The notes below the pieces were generated by a model. The model was given only the letters and a program-made list of their open reading frames with translations, was not told where the DNA came from and searched no databases. Positions 3-4,668 of a stretch of DNA of 64,000 nucleotides are shown here, one piece after another. Every line of letters begins with the position of its first letter. Positions within the stretch are counted from its first letter, which is position 1. The position numbers and the translations under genes are program-made. Source of the DNA: Myxococcota bacterium (GTDB lineage Bacteria; Myxococcota_A; Polyangia; Nannocystales; Nannocystaceae); contig JBCCHT010000003.1 in assembly GCA_039028615.1 (NCBI GenBank), positions 256,001-320,000 of the forward strand. The letters are read 5' to 3'.

Positions 3-1877
3 ATGGCGATGACGCGCGGGACGGCGATCACGGCCACGGCCGAGGTCTTGAGCCCCGACGACCAGGCGGAGTTCGACGACTGGTCTTTCGCGATGTCGGC
101 CGACGCCGACTCCCTGCGCCTGACCAGCGTCGCCAGCCTCACCCCCACCGGGCGGAAGATCTGGGACGCCGCCGCCACGAAGCCGGTCGCCGCGCCCCGG
201 CTTCGCAAAGAGGTCGATGCCTCGCTCACCGTCGCGCTGGACATCGCGGCCGCGCTGGGCGAAGCGAAGGGGCACACCCTGCGGGAGGGATCGTTGGGAG
301 ACCTGGCGCGGACCTTCCAGAACTGCGGCGTGACCTGCCCGATGTTCAGCGCGCTGCGTTGGCCGGCCTCTGCGGTACGGACCCTCGCCCCAGAGGTCAG
401 CAGGACGGGCACCGGGGTCGCGAGCGCACAGCTGGTGATGCCCTCCTCGAGCGAGCCGGCTCGGGTCGCGGTCGCACTGGTCGGCGATGACCTGCCCGCC
501 GCCGAGGTACTGAAAGGGGCAGTCGGAGTGCTGGCGCGCCCGGGTGCGGCCGCCAAAGTCGAGGAAGGAACGCACGCGGGGCATCCGGCCTTGTTGGTCG
601 GCAACGGCATCGAGCCCGCCACCATCTTCGAGCTGGGCGCCGAGTCGCCCGAGCCTCCGGCGCTGCTGCGGGCGCAGGGGCGCCTGCCCGCGGAGCTCGG
701 GGGCGGCTCGCTCCGCTCCGCCATGCACCGAGCTGGCCCCGCGCTGACCTTCGAGTTGGTGTTCGGCCCCGGCAAGCTCCGTTCGTTGCTCGACTACTCG
801 GCGGCGACCTGGGACTCGCCGCTGGGATCGGGAGAGGCCACCAAGGCCAGTCGCTGTCTGCACGAGCTGGCGTGGGTTCTCGTGGACGACGTCAACTCCA
901 TCGCGATGGTGGCGGTCGACCAGCGGGCCACCACGGCCGTGACCGCGGCCGGCAAGATCGGGCCTCTGGTCACCTGTGCCGCCGAAGACCCCCAGCTCGC
1001 AGAGGCGGCACGAGGCTTGGCCTCGCTGATGACCGCGACGATGGCCGGGGCCTTGCTCGAGGTCCCCGACTACCGCGCGGCTCGGGCGGTGTTGCAGACG
1101 GGGTGCCCCGAAGGACGCTCCGACGGGCCCGCGTGCGAGCGACTCGCCGCCATGGCCGATGTCGCGATCCCCACGCTGCAGCAATTCTCGGTGCCCGAGC
1201 AGTGCCGCCCCGAGTACGACCCCGGCTTCGGTATGCCCGTGGTGGTCAACAGCGACGGAATCTTCATCGCGGGGCGCAAGGTCGCCGCCTCGAGCTCGGC
1301 CATTGCGGCGGCGGTGGTCGAGCAGATGAGCATGGACGGACGCAGTGAGAAGGTCGGGTCCACGCTCGCCCTGTGGGTCGAAGGGTCGTTGCCGTTTTCC
1401 GTGGTCGAACCCGTCGTCGCGGCGGCGGCGAGCCTGGACTCCGAGCTGGGGGCGGTGATCAACGACGAGTCCGGTAAGGCGATGCGCGTCGGGTGGGCGC
1501 GAGAGTGGCCGAAGACGGTGAGCATCGACTGGAAGGTCGACCCGACCTACGTGCCCGAAAAACGCTTCGGTGGCGGGCTCTATGACCCCGAGGAGCGAGC
1601 GCCCGGCTCTACCGGGCCCAAGGTGTCGCACACCCTGCTGCAGACCCGCGGCGGCTTGGTGGTGGTGCCTCCCGGGGGAACGACGCTGGCCGTGCCCAAC
1701 TCGTCGGCGCTGTCCGCCTATGTCGACGCGGAGCAATCCGCGGCCGGGCCGGGGCGGACGGTGCAGCTGACGTGGAAGGTCGCGCCCGATGTGCCCTGGA
1801 GCGAAGTGGCCGAGGTGCTCACGCAAACCTGCACCATTTTCGGTGCGGTGGTGCAGACTCCCGCGGGCACTCCATGA
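3..1877 (+). CDS. Hypothetical protein with C-terminal ExbD/TolR-like segments; probably 5'-truncated by the window edge
   Basis: Long ORF with GC3-biased codons. VVVNSDGIFIAGRKV...LWVEGSLPFSVVEPVVAAA and VAPDVPWSEVAEVL resemble ExbD periplasmic domains. Confidence 0.6.
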   Translation: MAMTRGTAITATAEVLSPDDQAEFDDWSFAMSADADSLRLTSVASLTPTGRKIWDAAATKPVAAPRLRKEVDASLTVALDIAAALGEAKGHTLREGSLGDLARTFQNCGVTCPMFSALRWPASAVRTLAPEVSRTGTGVASAQLVMPSSSEPARVAVALVGDDLPAAEVLKGAVGVLARPGAAAKVEEGTHAGHPALLVGNGIEPATIFELGAESPEPPALLRAQGRLPAELGGGSLRSAMHRAGPALTFELVFGPGKLRSLLDYSAATWDSPLGSGEATKASRCLHELAWVLVDDVNSIAMVAVDQRATTAVTAAGKIGPLVTCAAEDPQLAEAARGLASLMTATMAGALLEVPDYRAARAVLQTGCPEGRSDGPACERLAAMADVAIPTLQQFSVPEQCRPEYDPGFGMPVVVNSDGIFIAGRKVAASSSAIAAAVVEQMSMDGRSEKVGSTLALWVEGSLPFSVVEPVVAAAASLDSELGAVINDESGKAMRVGWAREWPKTVSIDWKVDPTYVPEKRFGGGLYDPEERAPGSTGPKVSHTLLQTRGGLVVVPPGGTTLAVPNSSALSAYVDAEQSAAGPGRTVQLTWKVAPDVPWSEVAEVLTQTCTIFGAVVQTPAGTP

Positions 1878-1983
1878 CGCGGTGACTCATCGTCGCGCCT
1901 TCGGGCCCGATGCACTCGGTCGGCGATCATGAACAGGTCGCGGGCGCACGAGTCGTCGGGCTCGATTATTTTCGGCTTCGCAT

Positions 1984-2011
1984 TTGACAAACCAATCCCA
2001 TTGCGTAAGTT
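1984..2011 (+). promoter_or_regulatory. Sigma70-type promoter for the leader/tRNA operon
   Basis: Perfect TTGACA (1984-1989), 16-nt spacer, TAAGTT (2006-2011), in an AT-rich patch of a very GC-rich sequence. Confidence 0.7.
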
Positions 2012-2031
2012 GGCTCGACAGGAAGACGACA

Positions 2032-2145
2032 ATGGTTGCCCACGAGTCCCTCGCCCACGTTTTCGAGTTCTGTCACGCCACGGCGTACGACAGTTCGTCT
2101 TCGTATGCGTACGTGCTCGGCAGTCGATCGTCATCTCGCTGCTAG
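2032..2145 (+). CDS. Putative Ser/Tyr-rich leader peptide, 37 aa: MVAHESLAHVFEFCHATAYDSSSSYAYVLGSRSSSRC
   Basis: Hand-translated (below the ORF-track size cutoff). AGGAAG Shine-Dalgarno-like sequence at 2020-2025. Contains 9 Ser and 3 Tyr codons and lies directly upstream of Ser/Tyr tRNA genes. Confidence 0.75.
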   Translation: MVAHESLAHVFEFCHATAYDSSSSYAYVLGSRSSSRC

Positions 2146-2181
2146 AGCACGTCGTGCACGACGGCCACGGGCCGTTTCGTT
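2111..2181 (+). promoter_or_regulatory. Putative attenuator (alternative hairpins plus weak terminator)
   Basis: ACGTGCTC(2111-18) pairs with GAGCACGT(2145-52). ACGGCC-ACG-GGCCGT(2161-75) is followed by TTCGTT. Competing pairings exist for 2156-2166. Confidence 0.5.
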
Positions 2182-2279
2182 CGCGTCCCCGCCACGGGTG
2201 ACGTAGCCGGACTCGTTCGCGCTGCGCCCGATGGGTCGTCGGTCGTCGAGCGGGCCTCGTCGTGCCCAAAAACCAAAGA

Positions 2280-2363
2280 GGAGGGGTGGCCGAGTGGTAA
2301 GGCAGCGGCTTGCTACGCCGTCGTCTGGTAATGCCAGCGTGGGTTCGACTCCCACCCCCTCCG
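2280..2363 (+). tRNA. tRNA-Ser(GCT)
   Basis: Acceptor GGAGGGG/CCCCTCC with G73; anticodon arm GCGGC-TTGCTAC-GCCGT; long variable arm CTGG/CCAG; T arm GTGGG-TTCGACT-CCCAC; CCA not encoded. Confidence 0.95.
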
Positions 2364-2369
2364 CTCCAT

Positions 2370-2456
2370 GGAAGGTTGGCCGAGCGGTAAGGCACTCGCT
2401 TGGAAAGCGACGGTCCGGTCGAGAGATCGGCGGGGGTTCGACTCCCTCACCTTCCG
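2370..2456 (+). tRNA. tRNA-Ser(GGA)
   Basis: Acceptor GGAAGGT/ACCTTCC with G73; TCGC-TTGGAAA-GCGA; variable arm CCGGTC-GAGA-GATCGG; T loop TTCGACT. Confidence 0.93.
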
Positions 2457-2458
2457 CC

Positions 2459-2541
2459 GGAGGGTTCGGCATTGGCAGGCCAAGCCGCCTTGAACGCGGT
2501 GGGTCCTTCGGGGCCTGGGGGTTCGACTCCCTCACCCTCCG
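2459..2541 (+). tRNA. tRNA-Ser(TGA), atypical D arm
   Basis: Acceptor GGAGGGT/ACCCTCC with G73; GCCGC-CTTGAAC-GCGGT; variable arm with TTCG loop; T arm GGGGG-TTCGACT-CCCTC. Confidence 0.9.
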
Positions 2542-2550
2542 CCCTCATCG

Positions 2551-2636
2551 GGAAGGAATGTCATTTGGTTTGACGCGCAGTTTCGAAAACTGTCGGGGTA
2601 CTGCCCCAGGGGGTTCGATTCCCTCTCCTTCCGCCA
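2551..2636 (+). tRNA. tRNA-Ser(CGA), A at position 8
   Basis: Acceptor GGAAGGA/TCCTTCC with G73 and encoded CCA; D stem GTCA/TGAC; GCAGT-TTCGAAA-ACTGT; variable arm GGGG/CCCC. Confidence 0.92.
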
Positions 2637-2637
2637 C

Positions 2638-2723
2638 CCGCGGGACGCCCATTCGGTAGGGCAGCGGACTGTAAATCCGTGGCGCTTTGGCGCATGCAGG
2701 TTCGAATCCTGCCCCGCGGACCA
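2638..2723 (+). tRNA. tRNA-Tyr(GTA) with C1:G72
   Basis: Acceptor CCGCGGG/CCCGCGG with A73 and encoded CCA; GCGGA-CTGTAAA-TCCGT; variable arm GCGC-TTTG-GCGC; T arm GCAGG-TTCGAAT-CCTGC. Confidence 0.93.
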
Positions 2724-2772
2724 TCCCATCAAAACGTCCGGCCACGGCGAGACCGCGGCGGGTCGTGAGCAC

Positions 2773-2811
2773 GCGGAGGCGGCCGAGTCGACGGGGCTCG
2801 GTCGTCTCCGC
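2773..2811 (+). terminator. Strong stem-loop closing the tRNA array
   Basis: GCGGAGGCGGCCGAG pairs with CTCGGTCGTCTCCGC (15 bp, two G-U pairs on the + strand); no U-tract. Confidence 0.45.
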
Positions 2812-2820
2812 CCGCTGGCT

Positions 2821-2940
2821 GCGTACGAGCAGCATCGCGCCCACGCTCCGGCCGGCGATGCGGGCGTAGGCCTGCTCCCACTCATCGAGCGCGTCGGCGA
2901 ATTGGCCGACGCAGTAGGCGGCCTCGCCCTCCCGGTAGGG
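2821..2940 (-). pseudogene. TPR-like gene remnant
   Basis: Start-less frame PYREGEAAYCVGQFADALDEWEQAYARIAG looks like a TPR helix pair and is preceded in frame by TGA. Confidence 0.4.
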
Positions 2941-2991
2941 GCGCGACGAGAGTGTTCATCGGTAGATTCCGTGGGGCGGCGGCCGTGGGTC

Positions 2992-4668
2992 TCAGCGGGG
3001 TCGACAGGCACGAGTGACGAAGATGTCGGCATCGCCCGCGTTGGGCCCTCCGAGGTCTCCGCGAGAGAACCCGGCCGCGTAGATCTCACCCTGGGGACCG
3101 ATCTCGACGGCCCGAAGCGTGTCGGAGGCAGGTGTACCGAGCAGCTCGACCCACTGCAGCTCGCCCTCGGGGTCGAGCGCGACGATGCTCGCGTCTTCTT
3201 CCCCGACCACGATGCCGTCGCCGAAGTCTCCGAGGCTGTGCCCGACGACGTAGACCGTGCCCTCCGCGTCTACGGCGATGTCGAGGGCGACGTCGTCGAC
3301 GCTGGTGCCGAACTGCGAAGACCACTGCTTTTGTCCGTCGGGGTCGAACTTGACCACGAAGTTGTCCTGGCCTCCGAGGGGGTCCTGCAGGTCGAAAGAC
3401 CCGAGGGTGGTCCCGGTGACGTACACGTTGTTGTCCGCGTCCACGGCGACGCGGGCGGGGTTGTCGTCGGCTTCCCCGCCGACCTGCGCCGCCCACAGCA
3501 GCACGCCATCACCGTCGAACTTGGCGACGAAGGCGTCGCTGCCGCCCCACGCCGTTCGCCCTTCGAAGGACTCGCCCGTGAGCCCGGCGACGATGATGTC
3601 GTCGTTGCCGTCGACGGCCAAGCCGTACGCGACCTGGAACGAGCGGCCACCGAGCTGTCGATTCCAAAGCTCGGTGCCGTCGGTGTCGAGCTTGATGAGC
3701 AGCATGTCGGACGAGCCCGTGTTCGGCGTGCCGTCGTAGCTGCCCGTGGTGTAGCCGGCGAGATAGCCCCGGCCGTTGCTGCTCAGCCCCACCGACTGGA
3801 TGCGGTCTTCCAGCTCGGTGCCGAACTGGAGGGTCCATTCGACGTCTGCGCCCGCGTCATAGCGGACCGCGATCCCGTCCGACATCCCCAGGTGGGTGTG
3901 GCCCTCGAGCGCGCTCTCGGTTCGGCCCGGCACGAGAAAGCTGCCGTCGGCGTCGACCGCGATGTCCTCGCTCATGTCGAAGAGCATCGTGCCGAGCTGG
4001 CGGGAGAACAGCGGGGTGCCGTCGGGCTGGAACTTGCTGACGAAGAGGTCGGAGTCGCCGGCGGAGGCGTTGCCGTCGAGCGGGCCTTCGACGCGACCGG
4101 CGATGTACAGGTCACCCTCGTCGTCGATGGCGATGCCGCGGGCCTCGTCGGAGCCGGGCGTGCCGTACTGGATCCGCCAGCTGTCGCACGCCGGAGCACA
4201 GGTGTCGACGTAGCAGTCGGTGGACTCGCAGTCGCCATCGTCGAGACAGGCTTGGCCCTGCGCGCAGGGCCCACAACCGCCTCCGCAGTCGACGTCGGTC
4301 TCGTCGCCGCTGAGCAGGCCATCGTCGCAGCTGGGCAGGGCGCAGGCGCTGGTGCAGTCGTCGGTCTCGTCGTCGTTGCCGTCGTCGCACTGCTCGCCGG
4401 GGTCGACGACTCCGTCGCCGCAGGTGCCATCCCCGGTGACGTCGGCCTCGGTCTCGAGACCGTCCCCACTATCGTCGGTGAGGACGGATGCTGTCGTGCC
4501 CTCCGACGTCTCCGCGGTCCCCGAGCTGTCGTCCTCGGCGGGCGTGGGCCCCTCGGCGTCGGTGAAGCATCCGCTGGCACTCATCACCCCCGCGAGTGCG
4601 ACGGTGGCCATTCCACGCAGACGTGAGGGGAGCAGATCTTCGAGGTCGAGGCTCGTCGTGGTTTTCAT
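2992..4668 (-). CDS. Lipoprotein with myxococcal Cys-rich repeat and SBBP beta-propeller repeats
   Basis: ASGC lipobox; CGDGVVDPGEQCDDGN; repeated D.FV.KFD.DG...W..Q.G blades. Confidence 0.85.
   Translation of the reverse strand: MKTTTSLDLEDLLPSRLRGMATVALAGVMSASGCFTDAEGPTPAEDDSSGTAETSEGTTASVLTDDSGDGLETEADVTGDGTCGDGVVDPGEQCDDGNDDETDDCTSACALPSCDDGLLSGDETDVDCGGGCGPCAQGQACLDDGDCESTDCYVDTCAPACDSWRIQYGTPGSDEARGIAIDDEGDLYIAGRVEGPLDGNASAGDSDLFVSKFQPDGTPLFSRQLGTMLFDMSEDIAVDADGSFLVPGRTESALEGHTHLGMSDGIAVRYDAGADVEWTLQFGTELEDRIQSVGLSSNGRGYLAGYTTGSYDGTPNTGSSDMLLIKLDTDGTELWNRQLGGRSFQVAYGLAVDGNDDIIVAGLTGESFEGRTAWGGSDAFVAKFDGDGVLLWAAQVGGEADDNPARVAVDADNNVYVTGTTLGSFDLQDPLGGQDNFVVKFDPDGQKQWSSQFGTSVDDVALDIAVDAEGTVYVVGHSLGDFGDGIVVGEEDASIVALDPEGELQWVELLGTPASDTLRAVEIGPQGEIYAAGFSRGDLGGPNAGDADIFVTRACRPR

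Follow-up and report, generated by a model that had tools for sequence, protein, structure and literature searches.

A codon-matched leader reading frame conserved ahead of a spare serine/tyrosine tRNA array in the Nannocystaceae

Leader peptides control several amino-acid operons and pheST of enterobacteria by transcription attenuation; leaders of this type include trpL, hisL, pheL, thrL, leuL, ilvL and pheM. In the switches of tnaC (tna operon) and mgtL (mgtA), a leader peptide is linked to Rho-dependent termination. T-box riboswitches, which are found in the leaders of aminoacyl-tRNA synthetase genes and amino-acid genes, act without translation, by direct binding of uncharged tRNA. The controls known for tRNA genes are global ones, exerted at promoters by growth rate and the stringent response; how the level of each single tRNA is set in bacteria is, to our knowledge, still poorly understood. 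This report concerns a tRNA locus in a 64,000-nucleotide stretch of DNA (the window) from a marine Myxococcota bacterium of the family Nannocystaceae. The window is G000:C3:256001-320000, where G000 is the window's own genome (12.27 Mb, 94 contigs, 67% G+C); positions below are those of the window unless a genome or contig is named. At 1984-2723 the window contains an array of five accessory tRNA genes, four for Ser and one for Tyr, preceded by a short open reading frame (ORF) rich in Ser and Tyr codons. The comparison covered 73 genomes of the order, all of them from one family. Labels made of G and a number denote genomes, and those made of L and a number denote loci.

Among the leader-peptide attenuators, pheL is treated in PMC3082878. 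Full-text searches on leader peptides or attenuation in connection with tRNA arrays, operons, clusters, phage tRNAs or myxobacteria returned no paper that describes control of tRNA genes by a leader peptide. Such control would be new, as a variant of the known ribosome-mediated attenuation. By analogy of function, the nearest counterpart of the spare tRNA arrays described here appears to be the trn operon of Anabaena sp. PCC 7120. This long array (L-array) is a cryptic, supernumerary tRNA operon that is induced by translational stress, encodes 23 functional tRNAs, and is controlled via direct repeats over the -10 box, a putative repressor site (PMC8421152). The words leader, attenuation and terminator are absent from its text (PMC8421152). 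L-arrays have up to 43 genes and are spread by horizontal transfer (PMC8421152). The arrays of the Nannocystaceae resemble the Anabaena operon in being a supernumerary set beside the housekeeping tRNAs, apparently for use when translation is impaired. They differ from it in being many and small (2-10 genes), each with its own codon-matched leader. They do not correspond to L-arrays in length (2-10 genes against up to 43), and no mobile-element genes adjoin the array of the window.

As in the classical attenuators, a short ORF lies upstream in the same transcript and is packed with the codons to be sensed. A prediction made earlier from the letters of the window (the original prediction) had described a 37-codon ORF located 134 nt ahead of a Ser4-Tyr array, and both the reading of the ORF and ARAGORN bear this out. 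The leader ORF (MVAHESLAHVFEFCHATAYDSSSSYAYVLGSRSSSRC) is on the forward strand at 2032-2145, with an ATG at 2032, 37 codons and a TAG stop; it is kept in the 11 loci described below. A Shine-Dalgarno-like sequence had also been claimed, and AGGAAG is present at 2020-2025 on the same strand, 6 nt ahead of the ATG. A purine-rich motif (GGAG, GAGG or GGAA) is found 5-12 nt ahead of the ATG in seven of the eight loci inspected. The proposed promoter stands in part. Its hexamers can be read in the sequence (-35-like TTGACA at 1984-1989; -10-like TAAGTT at 2006-2011, after a 16-nt spacer and with the leader ATG 20 nt beyond it; both on the forward strand), and TTGACR, 16 nt and TAnnnT are seen by eye at the same relative place in seven related loci. 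The consensus promoter scan called no promoter at 1984-2011, because the second hexamer matches TATAAT at only three of its six positions. Ten nucleotides before the -35 hexamer there is a terminator-like site (1949-1974, forward strand), consisting of a hairpin (1949-1964) and a T-rich tail (ATTATTTTCG). It is the sole site of this kind found by the consensus scan in 1700-3100, and the unit of the upstream gene ends there; the array thus looks like a transcription unit of its own. The site also makes it clear that hairpin-plus-T-tract sites do occur in this genome.

Ser and Tyr codons fill much of the second half of the leader. They account for 11 of its 19 final codons, as originally reported (binomial P 3e-8 against a genome Ser+Tyr share of 7.8%), and Ser and Tyr make up 12 of the 36 residues of the leader, where 2.8 are expected. 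By codon counts, the tract extends from Y19 to S35 (2086-2136, forward strand) and includes the rare codons AGT, TCT, TCA and TAT. The best 20-codon window in any frame upstream of the array holds 11 cognate residues, a value reached by none of 300 dinucleotide shuffles (mean 6.6, sd 1.0). When 59 tRNA units of the genome were scored in this window scan (one unit at a contig end was dropped), the Ser/Tyr unit ranked second. The nine Ser codons of the leader are TCC, AGT x2, TCG x3, TCT x2 and TCA; all array anticodons are addressed, and the codon count thereby agrees with the claim that the leader covers every anticodon in the array. The four codons named as uncommon are indeed so. Measured on 222,974 residues from long, high-GC3 ORFs of the window's genome, AGT, TCT and TCA make up 2.6%, 2.5% and 1.5% of Ser codons, and TAT makes up 15% of Tyr codons. 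Five of the nine Ser codons in the leader of the window are rare ones (P=1.3e-4). The original observation is confirmed in each of its checkable details.

The array consists of five tRNA genes on the forward strand, densely packed within 444 nt: tRNA-Ser(GCT) at 2280-2364, tRNA-Ser(GGA) at 2370-2458, tRNA-Ser(TGA) at 2458-2544, tRNA-Ser(CGA) at 2551-2636 and tRNA-Tyr(GTA) at 2638-2723. All five were called by ARAGORN and matched by Rfam, three of them as tRNA at 52-62 bits. For Ser(TGA) and Ser(CGA) the best-scoring model is tRNA-Sec (41-43 bits, under the cut-off of that family), a reflection of their atypical D arms; the Ser(CGA) gene also has a low G+C content (56%). ARAGORN finds 86 tRNA genes in the genome, and each anticodon of the array is duplicated among them, with canonical genes for Ser (GCT, GGA, TGA and CGA) and Tyr (GTA) on other contigs. 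The sequences of the array tRNAs are strongly divergent from these canonical copies. The Ser4-Tyr array is a spare second set beside the dispersed housekeeping tRNAs. Across the 11 loci, each array tRNA keeps its cloverleaf, with few unpaired cells and with compensatory changes in 2-9 stem pairs per tRNA (six each for Ser(GCT), Ser(GGA) and Ser(CGA), two for Ser(TGA) and nine for Tyr). The alignments indicate that the spare tRNAs are maintained and are not decaying. The regulated genes being tRNA genes, the molecules that would be sensed and the products are of the same kind, which sets this locus apart from the classical attenuators; it also differs from them in that two amino acids and five anticodons would be sampled together.

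C1-G72 is the Tyr identity pair of archaea and eukaryotes. It is the first pair of the accessory tRNA-Tyr in 11 of 11 loci, and the housekeeping tRNA-Tyr (G000:C6:14633-14718) has G1-C72. One match to the N-terminal domain of SerRS and two class-Ib matches, as expected for TyrRS and TrpRS, were found in the genome, so that no dedicated synthetase is evident.

The Ser/Tyr leader and its array are found together in 11 loci, nine in the 73 genomes of the order (one per genome) and two on metagenome contigs. The initial DNA search, which covered 60 relatives, returned homologous arrays and, as separate matches, the 3' half of the leader ORF. A peptide profile search of the 73 genomes found the leader in nine (E<=8e-10); the next-best match (E=0.007) lay inside a long frame. 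The leader-bearing genomes comprise all six of the window's genus, two of the eight of a second genus and the one genome of a third. A degenerate DNA pattern matched metagenome contigs eight times, of which two were real and six were chance matches in coding DNA, and genome contigs six times, of which five were real, all repeating known loci, and one was due to chance. The genome records matched in this way were labelled Myxococcota, Nannocystaceae and Paraliomyxa miuraensis SMH-27-4; the last label is that of a cultured strain, and the record carries the same leader and array (L096).

If the leader matters, a short codon-matched ORF should be conserved ahead of homologous Ser/Tyr arrays, as the original prediction had proposed. 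Such an ORF is present in 11 of 11 loci. It begins with ATG, has 33-39 codons and ends 73-340 nt before tRNA-Ser(GCT) (83-340 nt in a set of eight loci); start codon, stop codon and this range of lengths are kept throughout. The leaders have the motif ...Y.(G)SSSYAYVLGSRSSS.. in common. Across the 11 leaders, rare Ser and Tyr codons are strongly over-used (TCT, 14 observed against 2.2 expected; TCA, 6 against 1.3; AGT, 14 against 2.3; TAT, 20 against 5.1), and the common codon AGC is avoided (6 against 28.6). In the six genomes of the window's genus, the last three Ser columns hold Ser in 17 of 18 cells, encoded variously by TCG, TCC, TCT, TCA and AGC. The use of rare synonymous codons, and the conservation of the regulatory codons only and not of the rest of the peptide, are further likenesses to the classical attenuators. 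As a separate observation, the stretch GGC-AGT-CGA (Gly-Ser-Arg; 2119-2127 in the window) is identical in nine of the 11 leaders, one of the others having AGC and one CGT; both AGT and CGA are uncommon codons in this genome.

Matching leaders are found ahead of other spare arrays as well. In the window's genome, at least six other such arrays have a small upstream ATG ORF that is rich in the array's own amino acids (L031-L036; C23:6428-7400, C27:159100-159577, C27:171191-172600, C43:29499-30010, C43:37444-37920 and C9:257480-257854). Their tRNA content was checked with Rfam. The leader MKRTTTKTHTTTNPVAMGSFTASNSRKFGSC is followed by tRNAs for Thr, Phe, Asn, Lys and Lys, MNRSAQTHRHHHVVIVHSMHDICPC by Asp and His, MERFTTTTPMNTERMFGMGFMFGTC by Met and Phe, MTTKVQARSLRRDSQRTLGGRLRLRLRVGGRRLLRVA by Arg and Leu, and MLRFPTELSTNAVCTAGVVVLIGCQQQCACVCG by Cys and Gln; MERFTNISTPASAQAAALWSLVRLAGEIVAC precedes tRNAs for Ala, Trp, Cys, Val and Ile and two odd tRNAs with Ser anticodons. 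Together with the array of the window and a weak Pro case, these six arrays bring the total to 17-18 of the 20 amino acids, with Gly and Glu left uncovered. The housekeeping-type clusters of the genome are without such an upstream ORF. When eight leaders and eight arrays of this genome are set against each other in an 8 x 8 table, seven of the eight leaders score best for their own array (the exception is the Pro-Pro array), and the true pairing outscores every other one of the 40,320 permutations.

The eight leaders had been chosen by eye from ORF lists before this permutation test, and a possible selection bias counts against it. The test was therefore repeated on a set defined without regard to composition, by means of a motif at the stop codon. 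This motif, CGTGTTGAGCGKTYY, lies across the stop codon and is common to four leaders of the window's genome. It occurs 19 times in the 73 genomes; 14 occurrences have both an in-frame ATG ORF (of at most 50 codons) and downstream tRNAs, and five have neither. The 14 motif-defined leaders (alignment A3) are L068, L069, L071, L072, L074-L078, L081 and L083-L086. In G022, for example, leader MKRSTKYDHASTVTVVVDIVTHVGDKIHTC precedes tRNAs for Thr, Thr, Val, Asp, Val, Asp, Val, Asp, Ile and Ile, and leader MIRSTNMMYMYTPGARFMCVMAPC precedes two tRNAs for Met; in G002, leader MNRSTTDSHHHMRDHVVFVHSMHDICPC precedes tRNAs for Asp, Asp and His. None of 100,000 random permutations was as good as the true pairing, whether the 14 units or nine non-orthologous groups were used. 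Orthologues point the same way, in small numbers: the leader of an Asp,His array has one Asp codon against three for an Asp,Asp,His array, and leaders have 3-4 internal Met codons when a tRNA-Met is present against 1-2 when it is absent.

A second genome of the genus, G005, has 75 tRNA matches, and ten of its clusters were inspected for leaders. Three more clear leader-array pairs were found (Thr/Asp/Val/Met; Arg/Leu x3; Glu), one cluster (Gly) is ambiguous, and six housekeeping-type clusters are without a leader. The Arg/Leu array of G005 carries Leu(GAG), Leu(CAG) and Leu(CAA), the anticodons for CTT, CTG and TTG, which are the codons used by the Arg/Leu leader of G000; this fit points to matching of leader and array at the level of the anticodon. 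It had also been proposed that the codons of a leader should follow the content of its array. Between arrays of different content this holds, each having a leader with its own amino acids; within the Ser/Tyr family it holds only loosely, as described below. Taken as a pattern in sequence, the matching of leaders to the tRNAs behind them is well supported as a design principle.

Two side observations concern the composition of these loci. The two odd genes of L032 (G000:C27:171191-171263 and 172144-172216) are tRNA-like, 73 nt long and without the long variable arm; they have the Ser anticodons GGA and CGA and score 49 and 27 bits in Rfam, and the leader of their array has three TCG codons. In G022, a motif-type leader with its ten-tRNA array is directly preceded by five tRNA genes of about 81 nt (L071:65-764).

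The most probable explanation is that the leader is translated, samples the decoding of those codons that the array serves and, acting in cis, sets the amount of RNA that extends to the tRNA genes, slow decoding leading to more tRNA. The leader would report the speed of ribosomes on Ser and Tyr codons, the rare ones included, so that all five anticodons are sampled. Its reading would be coupled in cis to the transcription, or to the survival, of the RNA that runs into the Ser4-Tyr array, and the supply of tRNA would be under negative feedback. With too little charged tRNA-Ser or tRNA-Tyr, a ribosome would linger on the Ser/Tyr tract; it would then occupy or open a hairpin around the stop codon, and more of the transcripts would extend as far as the tRNA genes. 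Termination might be Rho-dependent, with loading at the C-rich, G-poor 5' half of the ORF, or it might take place at a hairpin terminator that has no T tract. Translation, stalling, the direction of the response (a stall turns the array on) and the way in which transcription is stopped are all things that we infer from sequence features.

A number of observations weigh against this explanation. The first group bears on translation. The window scan statistic is not very specific, and some units with a single tRNA for Arg, Ala or Leu also score high because the DNA is G+C-rich. The peptide as such is hardly constrained: pooled pN/pS is 0.84, the N-terminal half giving 0.95 and the C-terminal half 0.71. 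A near-neutral value is the expectation for a leader in which only certain codons matter, and taken alone it is no proof of translation. It would also suit an RNA or DNA element that acts without translation, for instance in processing, in pausing or in protein binding, and whose Ser/Tyr look arises only from its being rich in TCG/GTC. With such a G+C content, open frames come cheaply, and the block GTGCTCGGCAGTCGA, which forms a hairpin arm, is nearly invariant in its nucleotides, as an element of this kind would be. Such an element would not be expected to keep start, stop and length in 11 of 11 loci, with a Shine-Dalgarno-like motif in most of them, or to vary in its Ser columns only synonymously, even from TCN to AGC. 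Nor would an element that acts only as RNA predict in-frame amino acids of the array in unrelated leaders, and we regard it as very improbable.

The same ORF could in principle encode a small peptide that has its own role, as a signal, as a toxin or as the precursor of a modified peptide, and is merely co-transcribed with the tRNAs. The C-terminal motif YAYVLGSRSSS is conserved, as such a peptide might require, yet change in the N-terminal half is almost neutral. Genes for modification or export are absent next to the ORF, and its flanks are not common to other genomes. The association is with the tRNA array only, and the leaders of other arrays differ in sequence and match in composition. This is the least probable of the alternatives considered. 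The match in composition across unrelated leaders argues against both the untranslated element and the free peptide. From its sequence, the leader is very probably translated and a conserved sensor.

A second group of observations bears on how closely leaders and arrays correspond. Within the Ser/Tyr family, the leader follows array content loosely. Loci with four tRNA-Ser genes have 7-11 Ser codons in the leader, and the two loci without Ser(CGA) have 5-7. The array of G017 consists of Ser(GCT) and Tyr only, and its leader has five Ser codons, including TCG x3 and TCT x1, and three Tyr codons. In G004 the array is apparently part-decayed (three tRNAs by ARAGORN, two by Rfam at E<=0.01), and the leader still has nine Ser codons. 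It should be considered that the housekeeping tRNAs read the same codons; a leader would therefore sense the total pool, which makes strict tracking unnecessary and the test weakly informative. Among the nine motif-defined groups, two (G081 and G084) are without enrichment (z=-1.1 and -0.3), and only five of the nine leaders rank their own array first.

The observations on RNA structure are partly for and partly against the explanation. As in trpL, where the stop codon lies in the 1:2 hairpin, the stop codon of the Ser/Tyr leader lies within an RNA hairpin predicted by RNAfold (2111-2152, forward strand). Its 5' arm consists of the Tyr-Val-Leu-Gly-Ser codons (2111-2123) and its 3' arm (2139-2152) of the last Cys codon, the stop codon (2143-2145) and the next 7 nt; the last Ser codons are in the loop region. 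An equivalent pairing that encloses the stop codon is found at p<=0.07 against shuffles in seven of the 11 loci, and the sequence of the 3' arm varies between genomes with the pairing kept (GCCGAGCAC, GCTGAGCAC, GCCGA-CC-GCACG). Against this, the pairing is not significant in G000 itself (E=-15.1, p=0.14) and is absent in three of the 11 loci, and the fold of the whole leader is no stabler than that of shuffled sequences (z=-1.35; 19 of 200 shuffles as stable). In the motif-defined leaders, a long hairpin takes its 5' arm from the final codons and the stop, and the stop nucleotides GAGCGTTTC can alternatively pair with the start of the ORF, GAAACGCTC. These leaders begin with ATG-RAA-CGC, and the two ends of the ORF can form a helix of 9 bp. 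In alignment A3, 94% of the 126 cells of this start-stop helix are paired, against 24-55% for slid controls; there are two compensatory pairs, and the covariation score was reached by two of 500 shuffles. Alternative structures centred on the stop codon are, as far as such predictions go, a recurring feature of these leaders.

Long-range pairing between the 5' UTR and start region and the spacer was considered as a conserved feature and rejected. In G000, 2012-2049 (5' UTR, Shine-Dalgarno-like sequence and first codons) can pair with 2209-2251 (duplex E=-44.7, p=0.01 against shuffles); this is notable in G000 only, with none in the other 10 loci.

The locus is unlike the classical attenuators in two respects: an intrinsic terminator with a T tract was looked for and not found, and modelling gave no antiterminator. 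The consensus scan detected no hairpin with a T tract between ORF and tRNAs (2146-2279). A scan of the 11 leaders for T-richness likewise gave no terminator, and the spacers of 10 of the 11 loci contain no 8-mer with at least five T. A second hairpin of 13 pairs (2153-2185, forward strand) has the only T-rich stretch of the spacer (GTTTCGTT) in its 3' arm and has no T tract after it. In folds masked by a ribosome placed at Tyr, at the last Ser or at the stop, with two transcript lengths, the second hairpin persists and no terminator/antiterminator switch appears. These points also count against the explanation favoured here. Two testable defining features of the classical attenuators are thus lacking, and for this reason the Ser/Tyr leader is not filed with them. 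Of the leader-peptide attenuation originally claimed, the design of a leader matched to the tRNAs behind it stands; a canonical terminator or folding switch was not found. The leader resembles a T-box in being a cis-acting 5' leader that would read the state of a specific tRNA, and differs from it in giving no T-box match: an Rfam search of 1500-3300 at E<=1 returned tRNA-clan matches and three chance-level matches only, with no leader family and no T-box.

The first 60 nt of the leader (2032-2091 in the window) are C-rich and G-poor in 11 of 11 Ser/Tyr loci. The value of (C-G)/60 is +0.08 to +0.23, where the genome has a mean of 0 and an sd of 0.108, and each leader lies at the 76th-98th percentile of genome windows. 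This 5' half of the leader is a possible Rho loading site that would be covered by queued ribosomes. Ribosome occupancy of the leader could then decide the access of a termination factor, as in tnaC and mgtL, with the C-rich, G-poor tract as the candidate loading site. Unlike in tnaC and mgtL, this candidate site is upstream of the stall codons and not just past the stop codon.

Rho could also be involved in a different manner. In a translated, cis-acting leader with another logic, translation would carry the polymerase into the tRNA region by protecting the transcript from Rho or RNases; stalling at Ser and Tyr codons would then lower expression of the array, or the leader would set a basal level and would not be a sensor of deficit. 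Such a leader would be in keeping with the loose tracking of array content and with the failure to model an antiterminator structure, and the C-rich tract in all 11 leaders would suit a Rho loading site under ribosomes. However, coupling alone gives no reason for the presence of the array's own amino acids, and this match is the strongest signal in the data. It also gives no reason to favour rare synonymous codons, and a system that shuts off spare tRNAs when decoding is slow would be one of positive feedback with no obvious use. This alternative is considered unlikely, and a leader that answers slow decoding with more tRNA is preferred.

The genome of the window seems to hold a whole network of such pairs. 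If the preferred explanation is true, each would be a direct loop of demand and supply for a single tRNA family, ribosome-mediated attenuation would be extended from amino-acid biosynthesis to the decoding machinery, and the spare tRNA arrays would have a clear rationale. Pairs of leader and array might in addition be used as natural sensors that report translation stress codon by codon. These ideas are testable, since the cultured Paraliomyxa strain has the same leader and array. As a more tentative proposal, doubtful at present, these marine Nannocystaceae may carry a near-complete second tRNA set in small arrays, each gated by a codon-matched leader and each forming a separate feedback loop. 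The spare tRNAs could replace ordinary tRNAs that have been cleaved, modified or left uncharged through the tRNA-targeting toxins of competitors, prey or phages. Their strong divergence, their odd D arms and the C1-G72 pair of tRNA-Tyr are the features by which they could serve as replacements for tRNAs hit by a toxin.

Next to the array of the window are genes for an unknown protein, for a beta-propeller repeat protein and for a thaumatin-like protein. In the related loci, a search out to 1.5 kb from the array showed neither flanking protein; genomes thus differ in their flanks, which is compatible with mobility. No sign of a mobile or phage origin was seen: the neighbours include no mobile-element genes, and a phage collection gave only a 44-nt match to tRNA-Ser (in seven Brevundimonas phages). 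Beyond the array, 50 nt past the last tRNA, there is a G+C-rich hairpin of 17 pairs (2773-2811, z=-2.6), which has no T tract on either strand and to which no strand is assigned; it is possibly the end of the transcription unit.

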